Shown piece after piece: positions 19,221 through 34,941 of a stretch of 64,000 nt of DNA. The notes beneath the pieces were generated by a model. That model did not search any database. It was not told where the DNA came from and saw only the letters and a list, made by a program, of their open reading frames with translations. This stretch comes from Escherichia phage vB-Eco-KMB39. Positions within the stretch are counted from its first letter, which is position 1. The number at the start of each line of letters is the position of its first letter. The stretch lies in the sequence record OR539219.1, one strand, 5' to 3'. The position numbers and the translations under genes are program-made.

Positions 19221-19583
19221 TTAAAAGAATTTAAATTTTTTCTTTGACCTTTTATTAAATGCATCTTGTAGTTGCATTGTAATACATTTTTCTACATGAG
19301 GAGCTAACTCAGCTTTTCTTTCTTGGTCAAGAACAGCAAAGTCCATTACTACTTTTCCATCAACCCAATCTAATTTTGTCACATACACAATGTGTGTAGA
19401 ACCATCTTCTAGTTTAATGACAATCTCCTGAATAACATTTTCCATGGCAGATTTAATTATCTTAAGAGATTCATTAAAAAGACGTTCTTTTCTTTCTTCT
19501 TCCCCCTCCGAAGAGGGGGACTCGTCAATAATTTCTAGATCTAAATCTAAATCATCTTTATTCATTAAATTCTTCCATATCAC
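19221..19583 (-). CDS. 40: gene 40-like protein
   Basis: 120 aa; position between 41 and uvsX. Confidence 0.45.
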   Translation of the reverse strand: MIWKNLMNKDDLDLDLEIIDESPSSEGEEERKERLFNESLKIIKSAMENVIQEIVIKLEDGSTHIVYVTKLDWVDGKVVMDFAVLDQERKAELAPHVEKCITMQLQDAFNKRSKKKFKFF

Positions 19584-20739
19584 TTAACTGATCTAGGTCA
19601 GTTTCTAAATCAGCTGCTGATTTGTTTTTACTTTCTGGAGATTTAAATTTTTCAACCTTTGAGTTAATCAATTCATCAACTTCAGCTTCAACAATTTCAT
19701 TACTATCAATAGCACCTAACTGATAAGCACGTTTAATAGCATCTCGGAATGGTTGATGCTTAAATAAAGGACCCCAGAATGTAGTGCAGTTGGTATCTTT
19801 TGCACGCCAAGATTTTTCTTCGCGAATCATCTCGCCTGTTTCTTCGTCAAGAAATTCACGAGCATACCAGCCATTTTTAGGTTTTACTACAAATCCTAAT
19901 TCAAGAGCCATATCTAACAATCCAGAATAAGGATCGATACCACCGTCAAATTTAACATCAATAAAGAATTTACTTTTTTCTTTAACGGTACGAGATTTTT
20001 CTACATTTAGAACAAATTGATACCCCTGAAGATCAGAACCATCTTTAATCTGACGCTTACCGATAATGAATACAGTATCAGCCGAATACATTACGCCTGT
20101 ACCACCTGTCATCACGGTTTTACTAAACATTTCAATTGTTTCAATTGTATGGTTAACCGCAACACACGGAATATTTTTAATACTAAAATAAGGAGTAACA
20201 ATACGGAATAATGACTTCAGTGATTTAGCACGAGTCATATCTGCCACAGATTTTTCATTCAAGGCATCTTCCGTTTCTTTCTTAGAAGCCATATTACCGA
20301 TTGAGTCGATGAATACAATAACCTTTTCACCGCGCTCAATAGCTTCAAGCTGATTCACCATATCAATTTTCAGTTGTTCAACTGACTGGATTGGTGTATG
20401 AATTACTCGTTCCGGGTCAACTCCCATGGATCGCAAATAAGCTGGAGTAATACCAAATTCGCTATCATAAAATAGACAAACCGCGTCAGGATATTTGTTC
20501 AAATACGCCGCAACCATAGTCAAAGACATATTTGATTTAAAGTGTTTAGAAGGACCTGCAAAAATGGTTAAACCAGACTGCATACCGCCATCAATCGCAC
20601 CAGAAATAGCAATATTAAGCATTGGGATTTTTGTACGAATTACATCCTTTTCATTAAAGAATTTAGATGTAGTCAGTTCAGCAGTCATTTTAGAAGTGGA
20701 AGCTTTAATCAAACGGGATTTTAAATCTGCAATAGACAT
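19558..20739 (-). CDS. uvsX: UvsX recombinase (RecA-like)
   Basis: 393 aa (T4 UvsX 391); RecA-fold ATPase motifs. Confidence 0.9.
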   Translation of the reverse strand: MSIADLKSRLIKASTSKMTAELTTSKFFNEKDVIRTKIPMLNIAISGAIDGGMQSGLTIFAGPSKHFKSNMSLTMVAAYLNKYPDAVCLFYDSEFGITPAYLRSMGVDPERVIHTPIQSVEQLKIDMVNQLEAIERGEKVIVFIDSIGNMASKKETEDALNEKSVADMTRAKSLKSLFRIVTPYFSIKNIPCVAVNHTIETIEMFSKTVMTGGTGVMYSADTVFIIGKRQIKDGSDLQGYQFVLNVEKSRTVKEKSKFFIDVKFDGGIDPYSGLLDMALELGFVVKPKNGWYAREFLDEETGEMIREEKSWRAKDTNCTTFWGPLFKHQPFRDAIKRAYQLGAIDSNEIVEAEVDELINSKVEKFKSPESKNKSAADLETDLDQLSDMEEFNE

Positions 20740-20816
20740 TCATTTTTTCCATAGGCATCATTATATTTTCCTCACTGGTTAAAGATAGGGTAATTATAAC
20801 ACAATAAATTTAGGCA

Positions 20817-21665
20817 TTAATCAACTGCTATTGGATGAATAGCATTAAACTTATGAAACGCTTCTGATTTTTCTTTGCGCGAAACACACATGCGAAGAAC
20901 CTTTAATGGCTCGTCTTCTTCACCCAACGATTTTCTCTTTTCAATATTAGAAGTTTTCCAACGAGCTTGCTCTGGAAATTCTTTATTGATTTGCTCAAGC
21001 GCTCTATTATGTTTAGAATTACTACGAATTGAGCTGCATCCACCAGGAGCTTGTGCTTTTCCGGATACAACCAGATATTTGAACAAGGCCAAATGCGGAT
21101 AACCTTGATTAATTAAATTGAGAAATGCATACATATCTTCGCATAAATCAATTTTTCCATACCCAATTTGTTCTGTCGTAAGTTTTCCAAGGTCATACCA
21201 TGTATTCGTGAATCCATATGAATTTTCACGATAATTACCCCAAGATGAAGTAATTTTAAAAATTGGTAGACGAGCATGGCCATGATAATACCCGCAATCC
21301 ATGGCATCTTCAACATATTGAATCAATTCATAGAACTGTTCACGGGTTAACTGATTAATTTTATCTACGCAGCGACGATCATCTTTCTTTCGCATTGAAC
21401 TCATACGAATAGTAGTATCATCATCGATCATCCAAATTCGCTGACCTGCATACATATCAGTAATCGCTTTACGAGTACCAGCAATTCCATTGACATCATC
21501 AGGAATAGTTATAATTTTAGCTCTAGACCCGTAAGCGTCATAATAAGCTTTTTCTTCATGTTCACGTACTACAATATGTGGTTCATAATCAGATGGAAAC
21601 ATATCAAGGGCAGAAACTGCCCCTACACGTTGATAGCTTGGAATTACGAATTGAATCATTTCCAC
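20817..21665 (-). CDS. putative glycosyltransferase, GT-A-like fold (DxD), at the beta-gt locus
   Basis: 282 aa; motif RIWMIDDDTTI; lies between uvsX and 42 where T4 has 351-aa beta-gt. Confidence 0.5.
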   Translation of the reverse strand: MEMIQFVIPSYQRVGAVSALDMFPSDYEPHIVVREHEEKAYYDAYGSRAKIITIPDDVNGIAGTRKAITDMYAGQRIWMIDDDTTIRMSSMRKKDDRRCVDKINQLTREQFYELIQYVEDAMDCGYYHGHARLPIFKITSSWGNYRENSYGFTNTWYDLGKLTTEQIGYGKIDLCEDMYAFLNLINQGYPHLALFKYLVVSGKAQAPGGCSSIRSNSKHNRALEQINKEFPEQARWKTSNIEKRKSLGEEDEPLKVLRMCVSRKEKSEAFHKFNAIHPIAVD

Positions 21666-22396
21666 TCACCATTATAATCTTTTTTCGCAATATGAGTTTC
21701 GCCAGTTTTCCACCAATGGTCAACCAAATAAAAATGACGAGAATACACATGAAGGCTTCCAACATTCCATATAATGGAACCTGCTTTATACTGACGAGTT
21801 GAATCACCTGCATTCAAATCAGATACTAATTTATCTAGTACGTATTTTTGCCATGCATAATCATTACGGAATCCAAAGACCACGTCATTTGAACGCATGC
21901 TTACTACTGCATTGACTTTCTTATCACGAATCAGGTACTGTACTGTATTCGTACACATGAAATCTGACATACCATCTTTATTGTAGTCAAACTGCATAGA
22001 TGGACGAGTATAAATCATGATACCACGTCGAGAATCAGGATTTTGACCAAGTTCAGATAAACACATATCATACTGAGCATAGTTATCTTCTGACCAGATG
22101 GCCCAACCATAATTCGAGTTAATTTCACCTTTAGAAGATGCTACCTGTTGCCAAATCTTTGGCGTTTCGCCTGGAATATCTTTAACAAACAAACTTTTAG
22201 ATTTATACCATTCAAGTTCACGTTGAATGTATTCATCATTAAGAGCACCAAAAATAAAAGGTTCATCTGCTACAAATGATGCGCCAATAATTTCAATAGT
22301 TTTAACACCAGTTTTATCAACTACGAAATCTTTTTCCTTTAATGCAAGCCCCAAATGAAGACGGATTTCTTCAACTGTCATAGAGTCACTAATCAT
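21656..22396 (-). CDS. 42: dCMP hydroxymethylase
   Basis: 246 aa equals T4 gp42; thymidylate-synthase-like fold. Confidence 0.9.
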   Translation of the reverse strand: MISDSMTVEEIRLHLGLALKEKDFVVDKTGVKTIEIIGASFVADEPFIFGALNDEYIQRELEWYKSKSLFVKDIPGETPKIWQQVASSKGEINSNYGWAIWSEDNYAQYDMCLSELGQNPDSRRGIMIYTRPSMQFDYNKDGMSDFMCTNTVQYLIRDKKVNAVVSMRSNDVVFGFRNDYAWQKYVLDKLVSDLNAGDSTRQYKAGSIIWNVGSLHVYSRHFYLVDHWWKTGETHIAKKDYNGEWK

Positions 22397-22808: not shown

Positions 22809-23189
22809 TCACTTAGTCAAATTTTTTACACATGAATTATAAGAATTTACTATATACTCCATCGGAGCATTTTTACCAGTACGCCATTGATAATTATTAG
22901 CCCAATTTGCCCAAAGTTCAGCGCAGTAGTTTTCAATTTTTTCTTCGCGTGTAATTACATCTGAATTACGATATGCTTGGGCAGATTCATCTGGACGAAT
23001 AGCTTCGTCAAAATTCGCCTGCATTTGTTCTACTGTCTGTTTTGGAGCTTCTTTATAACACTTGACATTAGGATTATAAAACTTGCTTGAACAGTTTACA
23101 ATTTTTCCTACATCAGACTGATTTACTACCGGTCCTTGAGCTACACAACCAGTAAGACCTAATGCAATAACCAAAATAGCGATTTTCAT
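22809..23189 (-). CDS. putative lipoprotein
   Basis: 126 aa from internal Met MKIAILVIALGLTGC (lipobox); track ORF extends through promoter and gp43 terminator. Confidence 0.5.
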   Translation of the reverse strand: MKIAILVIALGLTGCVAQGPVVNQSDVGKIVNCSSKFYNPNVKCYKEAPKQTVEQMQANFDEAIRPDESAQAYRNSDVITREEKIENYCAELWANWANNYQWRTGKNAPMEYIVNSYNSCVKNLTK

Positions 23190-23194
23190 TTCAT

Positions 23195-23260
23195 TCTCCA
23201 AATCTGTATCAGTAGTTGATAGTTGTATAGTACCATGGAAAAACGGGGATGTAAACCATT
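23195..23260 (-). promoter_or_regulatory. promoter-leader cassette copy R2
   Basis: minus strand GTTTACA - 17 - tggTACTATacaactatcaactactgatacagatttggagaatgaaATG. Confidence 0.55.
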
Positions 23261-23340
23261 TTGTGAAAAAATTTTTAATGAATTCCAGAGGTCCAGAATC
23301 ACCTATTTTTCCTAAGTATAGATTTATATTACTTGTATGA

Positions 23341-23360
23341 AAAAGGGACCCGGAGGTCCC
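23341..23360 (-). terminator. intrinsic terminator after gene 43
   Basis: minus strand GGGACC-UCCG-GGUCCC followed by UUUU. Confidence 0.65.
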
Positions 23361-23373
23361 TAGATTTATTCTA

Positions 23374-26070
23374 TCAGCCAAACAGGAAGTCTAACGAAGC
23401 TTTTTCTTCATAGTCCATACCAGCCGATTCACACATACCCGCAAGCGGTTTAACAAACGATTTTTGGAACAAAGTTGAGTAGTCAATCCAAGATAGTACA
23501 TCAGAACGAATTTCTTTTGGAAGTTCTGTACCTGATGGCCAAGCAATACACTTGTCACCAAATGGATTTCCTTCACGTAATGGAAGAACCATTACCTTAT
23601 TTCCATCCAAAATTGGAGCTACACCCAGACCACTAACAGCTCGACGATAAGTTAGCACACCACGAATATGGAACGGACATTTAAATCCTGGCCAACCTTT
23701 ATCATCATATTTCGCTATATCATTCGCAGTTTTTACTTCAGCAATAACTTTATAGTCAAGTTGACGATATTCTTTCTCGAAGTTTTTGTAATATTCTTGG
23801 ACAGACTCTTCACCTTCCTGAAGAATACGACGAATACTTTCTTCGAGAGCTTCTTGTACCGCCTTTGGTGTTGAACTCTGCTGAGTTTCCATACCCATGA
23901 TTTTTAGATGCGGTTCAGCAAATCGCTTATCTTCCATATCATAAACGTTCAGAGCATAACGCTTTTTCGCTTTCCAAAATCCACCAACGCCCTTTGAACC
24001 AAGCGGAGGGCAAGAAATAGCTTCACGGTCCATATGCATCAGATGCTCGCGGTTATTCATATAATCACATAACTCACGATATGCAACATCAATCATAGGT
24101 TCCATCTTTTTCTTACCAAACTGATTCATAAATTCAACTAAATCGTTCTGCTCTTTGAATCGGTCAAGACCAACTTTTTCAATAACTTTATCTACACAAA
24201 CATATACCGAATCAGTATCACCTGCTGCGATGAAATCTTCACCATTAGTTCCGCATACTTTATTCAGATATTCATTAATTTTACGAGCAATCCACTGAAT
24301 ACCGACTTGGCCGAAAATTGTGATAGCAGTAGCATTTCGCAAATCATAGTAACGGAAATGAATATTACCAAGAGCACCATAAAGACTGTTAATGAGAATT
24401 TTACGGTTCAGCTGATTTGTGTTAGCAAGTGTAGCTGCTTTTTCACATTCCTCGATCAGACTATTGAGAACAGATTCAGTATAATTCGGTAGTTCATTTA
24501 AGAAATCATCACTGAACTTAACATATCGTTCAACTTCTGGTTTAGTTGAACAAGACCCTGCGCCTTTCATAATAATCTTTTTAATAGCTTCGGCATTCAT
24601 TTCTTCAGCGAACATTTTCTTTTTCCAGTCTTTACGCTGGAAAAATACTTTAGCGATTTCCTTTGGAATGATACCTTCTTGATGCTTATCATACATCCAT
24701 CCATTCGGAGAACAAGAATATTCATCACTCGGTTTAGGAGCTGTTCCTGCGATATATTCATGAATTGGATGAACTTTGAACTGACCACGAATAGTTTCAG
24801 GACTAATGTTAACCTGACGAATAATGCTAGGATACAGAGACGTCAAGTCAAAACTCATAATATATCGACGAGCAATCGGTTTAGGTTCAAACACAAATGC
24901 ACCCGGAAAACTCTGTTTAACGTGCGAACCTTGTTGAGGAATAATCTTGTGTTCACCTTTCAACGAGTTAAAAATAATAGCATCCCAAGTTTTAATAGGA
25001 CTCATTACACCAGAAAAAGGCATTTTAGCGTAATAAGACATACTTAAAACTAGATCGATAAACCCGCGAATTTTATCAATTGCTTGAACTGATTCTACGT
25101 CAATAATATTATAACTAATGTATCGTTGATGATTAGTCTCACGAAGTTTATTAATAGGACCATCATATGGTAATTTACCTTTTTTGGTTTCATGTTGAGC
25201 AACTGATTCCAAAGAGAATGATGGCAAATTAGTAAATGCGAATTTCTTGTACAAATCTAAATAATCAAGAATAGATACGCCATCAATAGAATAAATTTCT
25301 TTGCTACCGTACATATTTTGAATTAGTTTAGATTTTACTCGACCGATTGGAGAGAAGCGTTTCATACTACGTTCACCGAGAACCATTTTAACACGATTCA
25401 TGATATACGGAACGTCAAATCCCTCAATATTCCAACCGGTAAAAATAGCAGGTCGTTTCTGTTCCCAGAGATTAATATATTCCATGAGCATATCACGCTC
25501 ATTATCAAATGGCATATAAATTACTCGGTCAAGAATTTCTTGAGGAACTTCATCACCACCTTCACAGTCAAGTTTAGCAGCTAACTTTGCATCCCATTTT
25601 GATACTGAACCGTACATTGAATTCAACAAATCAAAGACGTAAAAACGGTCGTCAATTGAATCATAATGAGTGATAGCATCAATTTCATATTCTGCTTTCA
25701 TTGGGTCAGGAAATTTATCACCAGTAACCTCAATGTCACAGTTAGCTACACGAACAAATTTTCGGTCATAAACAATTTCTGAACCATATGTATCACTGAT
25801 ATAAGCGAGTTTAAAATCGTTCATACCAAGAGCTTCGAGACCGATGTCTTCCATTCGCTTCATCCAATCTCGTGCATCTTTCATTGATGGAAATTTTTGA
25901 GGAGCACAGTTTTTACCGTAAATGTCTTTGTACTTTGACTCTTCCTTACAATGCCTAAACATAGTCGGAAGATATTCTACTTCGCGAGTACGTTCCTTTC
26001 CATTTTCATCAATATAACGTTCAACAATATTATTTCCGACTGTTTCGATAGAGATATAAAATTCTTTCAT
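23374..26070 (-). CDS. 43: DNA polymerase (family B)
   Basis: 898 aa equals T4 gp43; exonuclease and polymerase motifs. Confidence 0.95.
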   Translation of the reverse strand: MKEFYISIETVGNNIVERYIDENGKERTREVEYLPTMFRHCKEESKYKDIYGKNCAPQKFPSMKDARDWMKRMEDIGLEALGMNDFKLAYISDTYGSEIVYDRKFVRVANCDIEVTGDKFPDPMKAEYEIDAITHYDSIDDRFYVFDLLNSMYGSVSKWDAKLAAKLDCEGGDEVPQEILDRVIYMPFDNERDMLMEYINLWEQKRPAIFTGWNIEGFDVPYIMNRVKMVLGERSMKRFSPIGRVKSKLIQNMYGSKEIYSIDGVSILDYLDLYKKFAFTNLPSFSLESVAQHETKKGKLPYDGPINKLRETNHQRYISYNIIDVESVQAIDKIRGFIDLVLSMSYYAKMPFSGVMSPIKTWDAIIFNSLKGEHKIIPQQGSHVKQSFPGAFVFEPKPIARRYIMSFDLTSLYPSIIRQVNISPETIRGQFKVHPIHEYIAGTAPKPSDEYSCSPNGWMYDKHQEGIIPKEIAKVFFQRKDWKKKMFAEEMNAEAIKKIIMKGAGSCSTKPEVERYVKFSDDFLNELPNYTESVLNSLIEECEKAATLANTNQLNRKILINSLYGALGNIHFRYYDLRNATAITIFGQVGIQWIARKINEYLNKVCGTNGEDFIAAGDTDSVYVCVDKVIEKVGLDRFKEQNDLVEFMNQFGKKKMEPMIDVAYRELCDYMNNREHLMHMDREAISCPPLGSKGVGGFWKAKKRYALNVYDMEDKRFAEPHLKIMGMETQQSSTPKAVQEALEESIRRILQEGEESVQEYYKNFEKEYRQLDYKVIAEVKTANDIAKYDDKGWPGFKCPFHIRGVLTYRRAVSGLGVAPILDGNKVMVLPLREGNPFGDKCIAWPSGTELPKEIRSDVLSWIDYSTLFQKSFVKPLAGMCESAGMDYEEKASLDFLFG

Positions 26071-29701: not shown

Positions 29702-30418
29702 ATGAATTATAAACTAATTTATGAAAAGTTAATCTCTAATGCTAAATCTCGAAAACTTGATTGCTATACTGAATCTCATCACATTATACCACGCTGTTTA
29801 AATGGCAGCGATGATGCTTCAAACTTAGTAGATTTAACACCAGAAGAGCACTATGTAGCTCATCAACTTTTAGTAAAAATTTATCCTTCTGAACCAAAAT
29901 TAGTCTATGCTGCTAACATGATGACAGTTTCCACGAAATACGCTAAACGCAACAATAAAACTTTCGGTTGGATTCGTCGTAAACTCTGGGAAATAGAAAA
30001 GAATAAAGAATTCTCCCAGGAGACACGAAAGAAAATGTCTGATGCAGTAGCTAATAAAGCAAGACTAACTTGTCCTCATTGCGGTAAGTCTGGATTAAGC
30101 GGGAATATGAATCGATGGCATTTTGATAACTGCCCGAATCACCCTAATCCTAAAGTTAGACCACCGATGTCTAAAGAACACAGAAATAATATCTCAAACG
30201 GGCTTAAAGCAATCATTCTTGAAGAAACATCCTGCGAATTCTGCGGAATGATAGGCAAGAAATGCGTTATCGCAGCGCATAGAAATTTCTGCAAGAAAAA
30301 TCCAAATGGACGCAAGAAAACTGAAAAGACTGGTACTTGCGTCCATTGTGGTAAAGTTACCACTTTCGGAAATTTATCAAGGTGGCATAATGATAACTGT
30401 AAATATAAACCTAGCTAA
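29702..30418 (+). CDS. HNH homing endonuclease with three C-terminal C2HC zinc-binding repeats
   Basis: 238 aa on opposite strand; HNH motif ESHHIIPRCLNGSDDASNLVDLTPEEH; repeats CPHCGK...RWHFDNC, CEFCG...HRNFC, CVHCGK...RWHNDNC. Confidence 0.8.
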   Translation: MNYKLIYEKLISNAKSRKLDCYTESHHIIPRCLNGSDDASNLVDLTPEEHYVAHQLLVKIYPSEPKLVYAANMMTVSTKYAKRNNKTFGWIRRKLWEIEKNKEFSQETRKKMSDAVANKARLTCPHCGKSGLSGNMNRWHFDNCPNHPNPKVRPPMSKEHRNNISNGLKAIILEETSCEFCGMIGKKCVIAAHRNFCKKNPNGRKKTEKTGTCVHCGKVTTFGNLSRWHNDNCKYKPS

Positions 30419-33738: not shown

Positions 33739-34941
33739 TTATTTTGTAATAATGTCAAACTGCTCTTTAAAGCAGAAGCTTGAATCTTGATGCTGATACA
33801 AAAATTCATAAGCTTTTTCGCGTTCACGGTCATAAAGAGCTCGGTCAGATGACAGTTCTTTAATATGTTCAAATGTTGATTCCATGTCATTTTCATCAAA
33901 CCAAACGATACCGCTATCGTGCGAAATTAATGGAGTATTATCAACACGGAATTTTAAATTTTCGCCAGTAGATTTCCAAAATACTGGAATTGTTCCACAT
34001 GCACCAAGCTCGAGATGAGTATATTCTAAAGAACGCTGTAGATATTTTTTATCTAATTTACTCAGCTGATAACCAAATCCGGATTTACTCATGCGTTCAA
34101 GCATTTCGCTATTTACATAACGGTCGAGAATTTGCGTCGGCAAATTAGGAGCAATTTTAATTTGGTCTACTTGATGAAGACGATAATACTCGTATGGAAT
34201 TCCTTTTTCTTTAATAGGAATGAACGCTGGAGAACGTTCCAGACCTTCCATAATAGTACTTAGTCCTGCAGGTTTAAGATGTTTTTCGTGAAAATCAAAC
34301 ATCTGATAAAAGCCTTTCCATGTAGTAGTACGACCAATCCAACGGTTGATATTCATGTTAATTTCAGAAACATCTTTCCAGTAAGTTGATCGAACCTTCG
34401 CAATATCCATAGGAGGCTGAAAGTTATATACAGTCGGTGCTTCTTCAATATCATCAAACAGTGAAACAGTTTCTGGATACCATTCTTTCATTAAAACTTT
34501 ATTAAAATCGCCATTATCAGAATGGCTAAAAATAACATCAGCTCGACGAACAGTTTCTTCTAATCCCAAATTTCGACGCAAAGAAAGAGAAGAATGGTCA
34601 TGCTGATAAACTACAACACGAACCGAAGGTTTAATGTTATCAATAATTTTTTTATAGTTATTAATCGTGTCTTCTTCAACTGAAGTAGCAGGAACTGAAT
34701 TGATAACTAGAATATCACAATCATTTACCAACTTAAGTGTTTTATCGTATTCTTTTGCCAATAAAACCGGAATTGAAAATGATTTATAATCATGCGCGCA
34801 ATTACGAGTAAATGATTTATCTTTAGCATAAACCAAAGTTACTTCATGACCATTTTTAATAAACCAATCACGCTGCTCAAGAGAAAATTTAGTTACACCG
34901 CAACCTTCAAGACCTCGAGCCATAAAAATGCATACTTTCAT
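33739..34941 (-). CDS. a-gt: DNA alpha-glucosyltransferase
   Basis: 400 aa equals T4 alpha-gt; N-terminus CIFMARGLEGCGVTKFSLEQ. Confidence 0.85.
   Translation of the reverse strand: MKVCIFMARGLEGCGVTKFSLEQRDWFIKNGHEVTLVYAKDKSFTRNCAHDYKSFSIPVLLAKEYDKTLKLVNDCDILVINSVPATSVEEDTINNYKKIIDNIKPSVRVVVYQHDHSSLSLRRNLGLEETVRRADVIFSHSDNGDFNKVLMKEWYPETVSLFDDIEEAPTVYNFQPPMDIAKVRSTYWKDVSEINMNINRWIGRTTTWKGFYQMFDFHEKHLKPAGLSTIMEGLERSPAFIPIKEKGIPYEYYRLHQVDQIKIAPNLPTQILDRYVNSEMLERMSKSGFGYQLSKLDKKYLQRSLEYTHLELGACGTIPVFWKSTGENLKFRVDNTPLISHDSGIVWFDENDMESTFEHIKELSSDRALYDREREKAYEFLYQHQDSSFCFKEQFDIITK

Follow-up and report, generated by a model that had tools for sequence, protein, structure and literature searches.

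The gene 42–uvsX interval and its partner genes

We analysed a 64-kb stretch of DNA from Escherichia phage vB-Eco-KMB39 (OR539219.1; hereafter the window), the first 25 kb of which, starting at rIIA, are 96–97% identical to many Tequatrovirus genomes. Between uvsX and gene 42, the six-frame ORF list places a minus-strand ORF (20817..21665) of 282 aa, counted from a GTG codon, which carries the motif RIWMIDDDTTI. The features that bear on its interpretation are as follows, in window coordinates:

19558..20739, minus strand: uvsX, the downstream flank of ggt (Pfam T4_UVSX_C and RecA)
20740..20816, minus strand: ggt–uvsX spacer of 77 nt, with a layout identical to that of T2
20817..21659, minus strand: ggt (TAGT) gene, 280 aa, ending in a stop codon at 20817–20819; assigned to the T2/T6-type beta-glucosyl-HMC-alpha-glucosyltransferases
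21417..21425, minus strand: codons GAT GAT GAT of the DxD motif (D79-D80-D81), invariant in 45 of 45 sequences, at the end of model strand 74–78
21656..22396, minus strand: gene 42, dCMP hydroxymethylase, 97.1% identical to T4 gp42 (Pfam Thymidylat_synt; synteny with T2, T6 and T4)
33739..34941, minus strand: alpha-gt, DNA alpha-glucosyltransferase with a GT-B fold (PF11440, E=3e-235), 98.5% identical to T2 alpha-gt

The 5' end of the ggt region reads ...GAGTGGAAATGATTCAA..., in which the ATG at 21659 and the TGA stop codon of gene 42 share the letters ATGA. The same ATG, giving 280 aa, is the annotated ggt start in phages N2 and T2. The GTG start at 21665 was dropped in favour of this ATG on account of the ATGA overlap and the annotation of N2 and T2; the gene almost certainly starts at this ATG, two codons inside the GTG, and the two extra codons are probably not translated. 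What the initial annotation had stated about the existence of the ORF, its motif and its place between uvsX and gene 42 thus holds, and its length is to be corrected from 282 to 280 aa. Judging from the overlap, ggt is predicted to be translationally coupled to gene 42.

Over its full length, the window protein is 98% identical to ggt of T2 (MH751506), 97% to that of T6 (NC_054907 and MH550421) and 99% to that of phage N2. It matches PHROG 842, ‘beta-glucosyl-HMC-alpha-glucosyltransferase’, with residues 2–277 (E=2e-89), and the Pfam family TAGT (PF20691, TET-associated glycosyltransferase) over profile positions 2–205 of 205 with 38.7 bits, the curated gathering threshold of this family being 27.5 bits; NCBIfam had no model for the window protein. 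We are highly confident that the ORF is Tequatrovirus ggt, the T2/T6 gene whose enzyme (EC 2.4.1.28) transfers glucose from UDP-glucose onto alpha-glucosyl-hmC with gentiobiosyl-hmC as the product. We infer the activity of the window enzyme from the 97–98% identity to the T2 and T6 genes together with the literature. A T2/T6-like enzyme adding a second glucose had been expected in the initial annotation, and the homology search that it had proposed, against the beta-glucosyl-HMC-alpha-glucosyltransferase of T2 and T6, returned exactly these matches. Its observation that a T4-like alpha-gt and the dCMP hydroxymethylase are both encoded was equally accurate (see the PF11440 match and the identity to gp42 listed above). 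T2 and T6, too, have gene 42, ggt and uvsX in this order.

The spacer between ggt and uvsX holds TGTTATAAT, an extended -10-like element at about 20793–20801, which may be a promoter, judging from its letters; this site is missing from the list of the sigma-70 scan. In the segment 20600–22600, the scan gave 12 sigma-70 sites with 9.4 expected from shuffled sequence, and 1 terminator was scored with 0.9 expected, so that there was no excess of either over chance. A 9-bp GC-rich hairpin, TAGGGGCAG-TTT-CTGCCCTTG, lies on the minus strand at 21605–21625, 35 nt inside ggt and just past the putatively coupled start. It was scored as terminator-like, within the chance expectation, and is probably fortuitous, though it could affect the translational coupling with gene 42.

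Two ORFs elsewhere in the window may be recorded here. One, of 238 aa (29702–30418), lies on the plus strand between the gene 45/rpbA area and gene 46, where every neighbour is encoded on the opposite strand; such a setting is typical of mobile genes that have been inserted, homing endonucleases for example. The other, of 190 aa (22809–23381, minus strand), begins at a TTG codon between imm and gene 43 and exceeds in length the imm.1 annotated in T2, T6 and T4 (about 126 aa); the extra length is probably an artefact of the ORF caller, which started from an upstream TTG.

Fold and conserved residues of the ggt protein

Since a search of PDB sequences with the ggt protein returned no solved relative, only a chance match with E=0.94, the fold was examined by means of a predicted model (mean pLDDT 92.9, pTM 0.91). 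The model consists of a single Rossmann-like alpha/beta/alpha domain and matches solved GT-A enzymes; likewise, the published AlphaFold3 model for PF20691 is of the GT-A type, sister to GT2 (PMC13216743). The alignments with solved enzymes cover no more than about 210 residues of the 280-aa ggt protein, and its C-terminal 70 residues therefore lie outside the matched GT-A core.

Homologues were collected by a single-protein search (12 sequences) and a profile search (51 sequences), and 45 of them were aligned at full length. Residues I6, R11, R63, D79, D80 and D81 are invariant across this alignment, P7, Y9, R32, Y39, T62 and R212 are conserved in at least 90% of the sequences, and D175 (in E174-D175) in 87%. 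The DDD triplet directly follows model strand 74–78, which is the canonical position of the DxD motif in GT-A enzymes, and on the model it would bind the metal and the nucleotide sugar, predicted here to be UDP-glucose. Inverting GT-A families are prominent among the best structural matches, which is consistent with the formation of a beta-linkage from UDP-alpha-glucose; the mechanism is probably inverting, and the conserved Asp175 is a candidate for the catalytic base.

The structural neighbours of the model are polysaccharide and glycoprotein GT-A enzymes, which could point to a glycosyltransferase acting on the host envelope or on a protein and merely sitting at this locus. We regard the probability of this as close to negligible: PF20691 and PHROG 842 are specific to DNA modification, the gene is apparently coupled in translation to gene 42 and occupies, as an allele, the position of T4 beta-gt, and the classic literature, as cited in PMC13216743, ascribes the gentiobiosyl-hmC of T2 and T6 to its orthologues in these phages.

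The two public T6 genomes carry different, apparently damaging lesions in ggt. In MH550421, codon 10 is a stop codon (L002 7951–7953) and the gene is annotated from Met20, which would cost the protein its invariant N-terminal IPSY-R strand. In NC_054907/AP018814 (L005 931–1770), one Asp of the DDD triplet, invariant in the 45 homologues, is missing through an in-frame loss of 3 nt in the GATGATGAT run (GATGAT, residues 79–80). The protein of the latter record, YP_010067197.1, served as the reference for modelling in PMC13216743. As T6 is the classic high-gentiobiose phage, these lesions may have been acquired by laboratory stocks.

Expected modification of the virion DNA

In the pathway that we propose, gp42 would supply hm-dCMP, which is then built into the DNA at replication. 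The GT-B enzyme alpha-gt would attach alpha-glucose to part of the hmC residues and so provide the acceptor for ggt, and the latter, a GT-A enzyme, would extend some of the alpha-glucosyl-hmC with a beta-1,6-linked glucose to give gentiobiosyl-hmC. By analogy with related phages, the virion DNA should contain hmC, alpha-glucosyl-hmC and alpha-gentiobiosyl-hmC and be devoid of the beta-monoglucosyl-hmC of T4; a tblastn search with T4 beta-gt against the whole 64-kb window found nothing, the absence of beta-gt referring to this part of the genome.

In T2 and T6, the substrate of the PF20691 enzyme is a cytosine that already bears alpha-glucose, and the addition of a further glucose produces the gentiobiosyl base (PMC13216743, NAR 2026). 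Tequatrovirus isolates that encode, like T6, an alpha-GT and a TAGT at the syntenic position of T4 beta-GT have been described (PMC13390438, AEM 2026), and HPLC/MS of their DNA gave hmC, alpha-glucosyl-hmC and alpha-gentiobiosyl-hmC in a ratio of about 1:2:2 and no beta-glucosyl form (PMC13390438). The findings of both studies make the prediction of a modification pattern unlike that of T4, as put forward in the initial annotation, well founded. The further suggestion of alternative sugar modifications in this phage has become superfluous, given the identity of the gene as T2/T6 ggt.

The extent of diglucosylation is another matter and is unpredictable, because T2 contains about 5% and T6 about 72% gentiobiosyl-hmC (figures quoted in PMC13390438), while both enzymes are 97–98% identical to that of the window and hence closely resemble one another. 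Accordingly, ggt might contribute little, the DNA being essentially T2-like with mostly alpha-monoglucosyl-hmC, free hmC and a few percent of gentiobiosyl-hmC, in which case the practical contrast with T4 would mainly consist in the missing beta-glucosylation. Two observations are in line with such a minor role: the low proportion quoted for T2, which has a ggt 98% identical to ours, and the evident tolerance of ggt lesions in T6 laboratory stocks. Nevertheless, the window ORF is intact and has all the invariant residues of the family, and Tequatrovirus isolates from nature that likewise encode an alpha-GT and a TAGT reach approximately 40% gentiobiosyl-hmC (the 1:2:2 ratio of PMC13390438); we consider a minor role possible but rather unlikely. 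That the few substitutions relative to T2 and T6 ggt set the extent of diglucosylation, from about 5% in T2 to about 72% in T6, is a conjecture that we hold to be highly improbable. If it were true, natural ggt alleles could be used to map the control of the ratio of gentiobiosyl to monoglucosyl forms, and such control would also bear on the sensitivity to glucose-specific defences, e.g. GmrSD and Brig1.

A transfer of a different sugar, or the use of another acceptor such as bare hmC, would result in a modification absent from T2 and T6. The partners of TAGTs differ from phage to phage, so that specificity varies across the family (PMC13216743); however, 97–98% identity to the T2 and T6 enzymes and the same partner genes make a change of specificity very unlikely, and we give this option scarcely any credence. 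Arabinose, transferred by Mosigvirus Aat enzymes (RB69/Bas46) in phages with a 5-hydroxy-dCMP pathway, was set aside, as a T4-type gp42 and alpha-gt are present and the glucosyl-hmC pathway therefore applies.

With glucosylation of alpha-glucosyl-hmC as the preferred activity, ggt indicates which of the known T-even patterns is to be expected, namely the T2/T6 type and not the T4 type with alpha- plus beta-monoglucosyl-hmC. This pattern bears on how the phage fares against modification-dependent defences, GmrSD-family enzymes and Brig1-type glycosylases among them, on restriction digestion and on the sequencing of the phage DNA.

Comparison with T-even phages and other glycosyltransferases

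A megablast search with a 3-kb segment matched 617 phage records, at least 441 of them at 95–99% identity, nearly all from Tequatrovirus phages of Escherichia, Shigella, Yersinia and Salmonella; among the matches listed, most are annotated as beta-glucosyl-HMC-alpha-glucosyltransferase. The window thus has a T2/T6-type gene in its usual place, an arrangement that prevails in Tequatrovirus and is already known in hundreds of phages. The arrangement of gene 42, ggt and uvsX together with alpha-gt has been described genetically, by structural modelling and chemically, and there is nothing new in kind here. At a wider scale, an alpha-GT or a beta-GT is combined with a TAGT in the vast majority of phages that have a GT, and alpha-GT and beta-GT occur together in only 6 of 753 genomes (PMC13216743). 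The TAGT family itself is diverse, with some members found without alpha-GT or beta-GT and others found with beta-GT (PMC13216743).

In T4, the interval between gene 42 and uvsX contains the 351-aa beta-gt, as the initial annotation had correctly stated, and in addition the homing endonuclease segA, which it had omitted. Its claim that the window protein is unrelated to T4 beta-gt is also confirmed: BLASTP revealed no similarity between the two (best E=3.3), and PF09198 had no match in the window protein. DNA alignments of the window, T2 and T4 show that homology to T4 is lost a few codons before the stop codon of gene 42 and returns at about codon 5 of uvsX, whereas T2 and the window are collinear across the whole interval.

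A remnant of ggt, comprising 25 nt of its 3' end with the stop codon, survives in T4 between beta-gt and segA, where T4 has TTCATCGAATAGCAGTTGATTAATG and the window has TTCATCCAATAGCAGTTGATTAATG (24 of 25 positions identical; pairwise E=5e-7). Its position is as follows:

NC_000866, L004 6239–6263: ggt remnant in T4, directly upstream of the segA start codon
NC_000866, L004 5571–6236, minus strand: segA

Phages with both ggt and segA, among them ESh36, LH2, PD112 and Manna, are 97–99.7% identical to T4 from exactly the remnant onward, whereas the Pu-Krd-SF series, which has beta-gt and apparently no segA, matches T4 only at the 3' end of beta-gt and the spacer. As these two groups match T4 on opposite sides of the remnant, the T4 locus is a mosaic whose joint lies where ggt ends. 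It arose either through the replacement of ggt by beta-gt in an ancestor with ggt and segA, or through segA homing that brought the ggt flank into a phage with beta-gt.

Compared with known systems, the window gene is closest to ggt of T2 and T6, with which it shares 97–98% identity over 280 aa, the place between gene 42 and uvsX, the ATGA junction and the alpha-gt partner. It differs from T2 ggt by six substitutions (R11H, S23T, K92R, I101V, K226R and P251S) and from the public T6 records in having neither the stop at codon 10 nor the deletion in DDD. TAGTs of other phages and of metagenomes belong to the same Pfam family and share the N-terminal IPSY-R motif, R63, DDD and R212; the distant ones, however, are only 12–30% identical to ggt and occur on their own or together with beta-GT or TET/JBP dioxygenases. 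The best structural matches among cellular GT-A glycosyltransferases (WrtF, AvpGT, GnT-I, TarP, SpsA and others) have 8–15% sequence identity to ggt and, in contrast to the predicted window enzyme, act on lipid- or protein-linked glycan acceptors and not on DNA.

T4 beta-gt sits in the same place as the window gene, downstream of gene 42. With UDP-glucose as the donor, it attaches glucose to modified phage DNA through a beta-glycosidic bond, as is predicted for the window enzyme, but it has a GT-B fold (PF09198) instead of the modelled GT-A fold and is without sequence similarity to ggt. The acceptor of T4 beta-gt is the hydroxymethyl group of hmC, whereas that of ggt would be the glucose of alpha-glucosyl-hmC; the product is accordingly beta-monoglucosyl-hmC in the case of T4 and, as expected for the window phage, a disaccharide.
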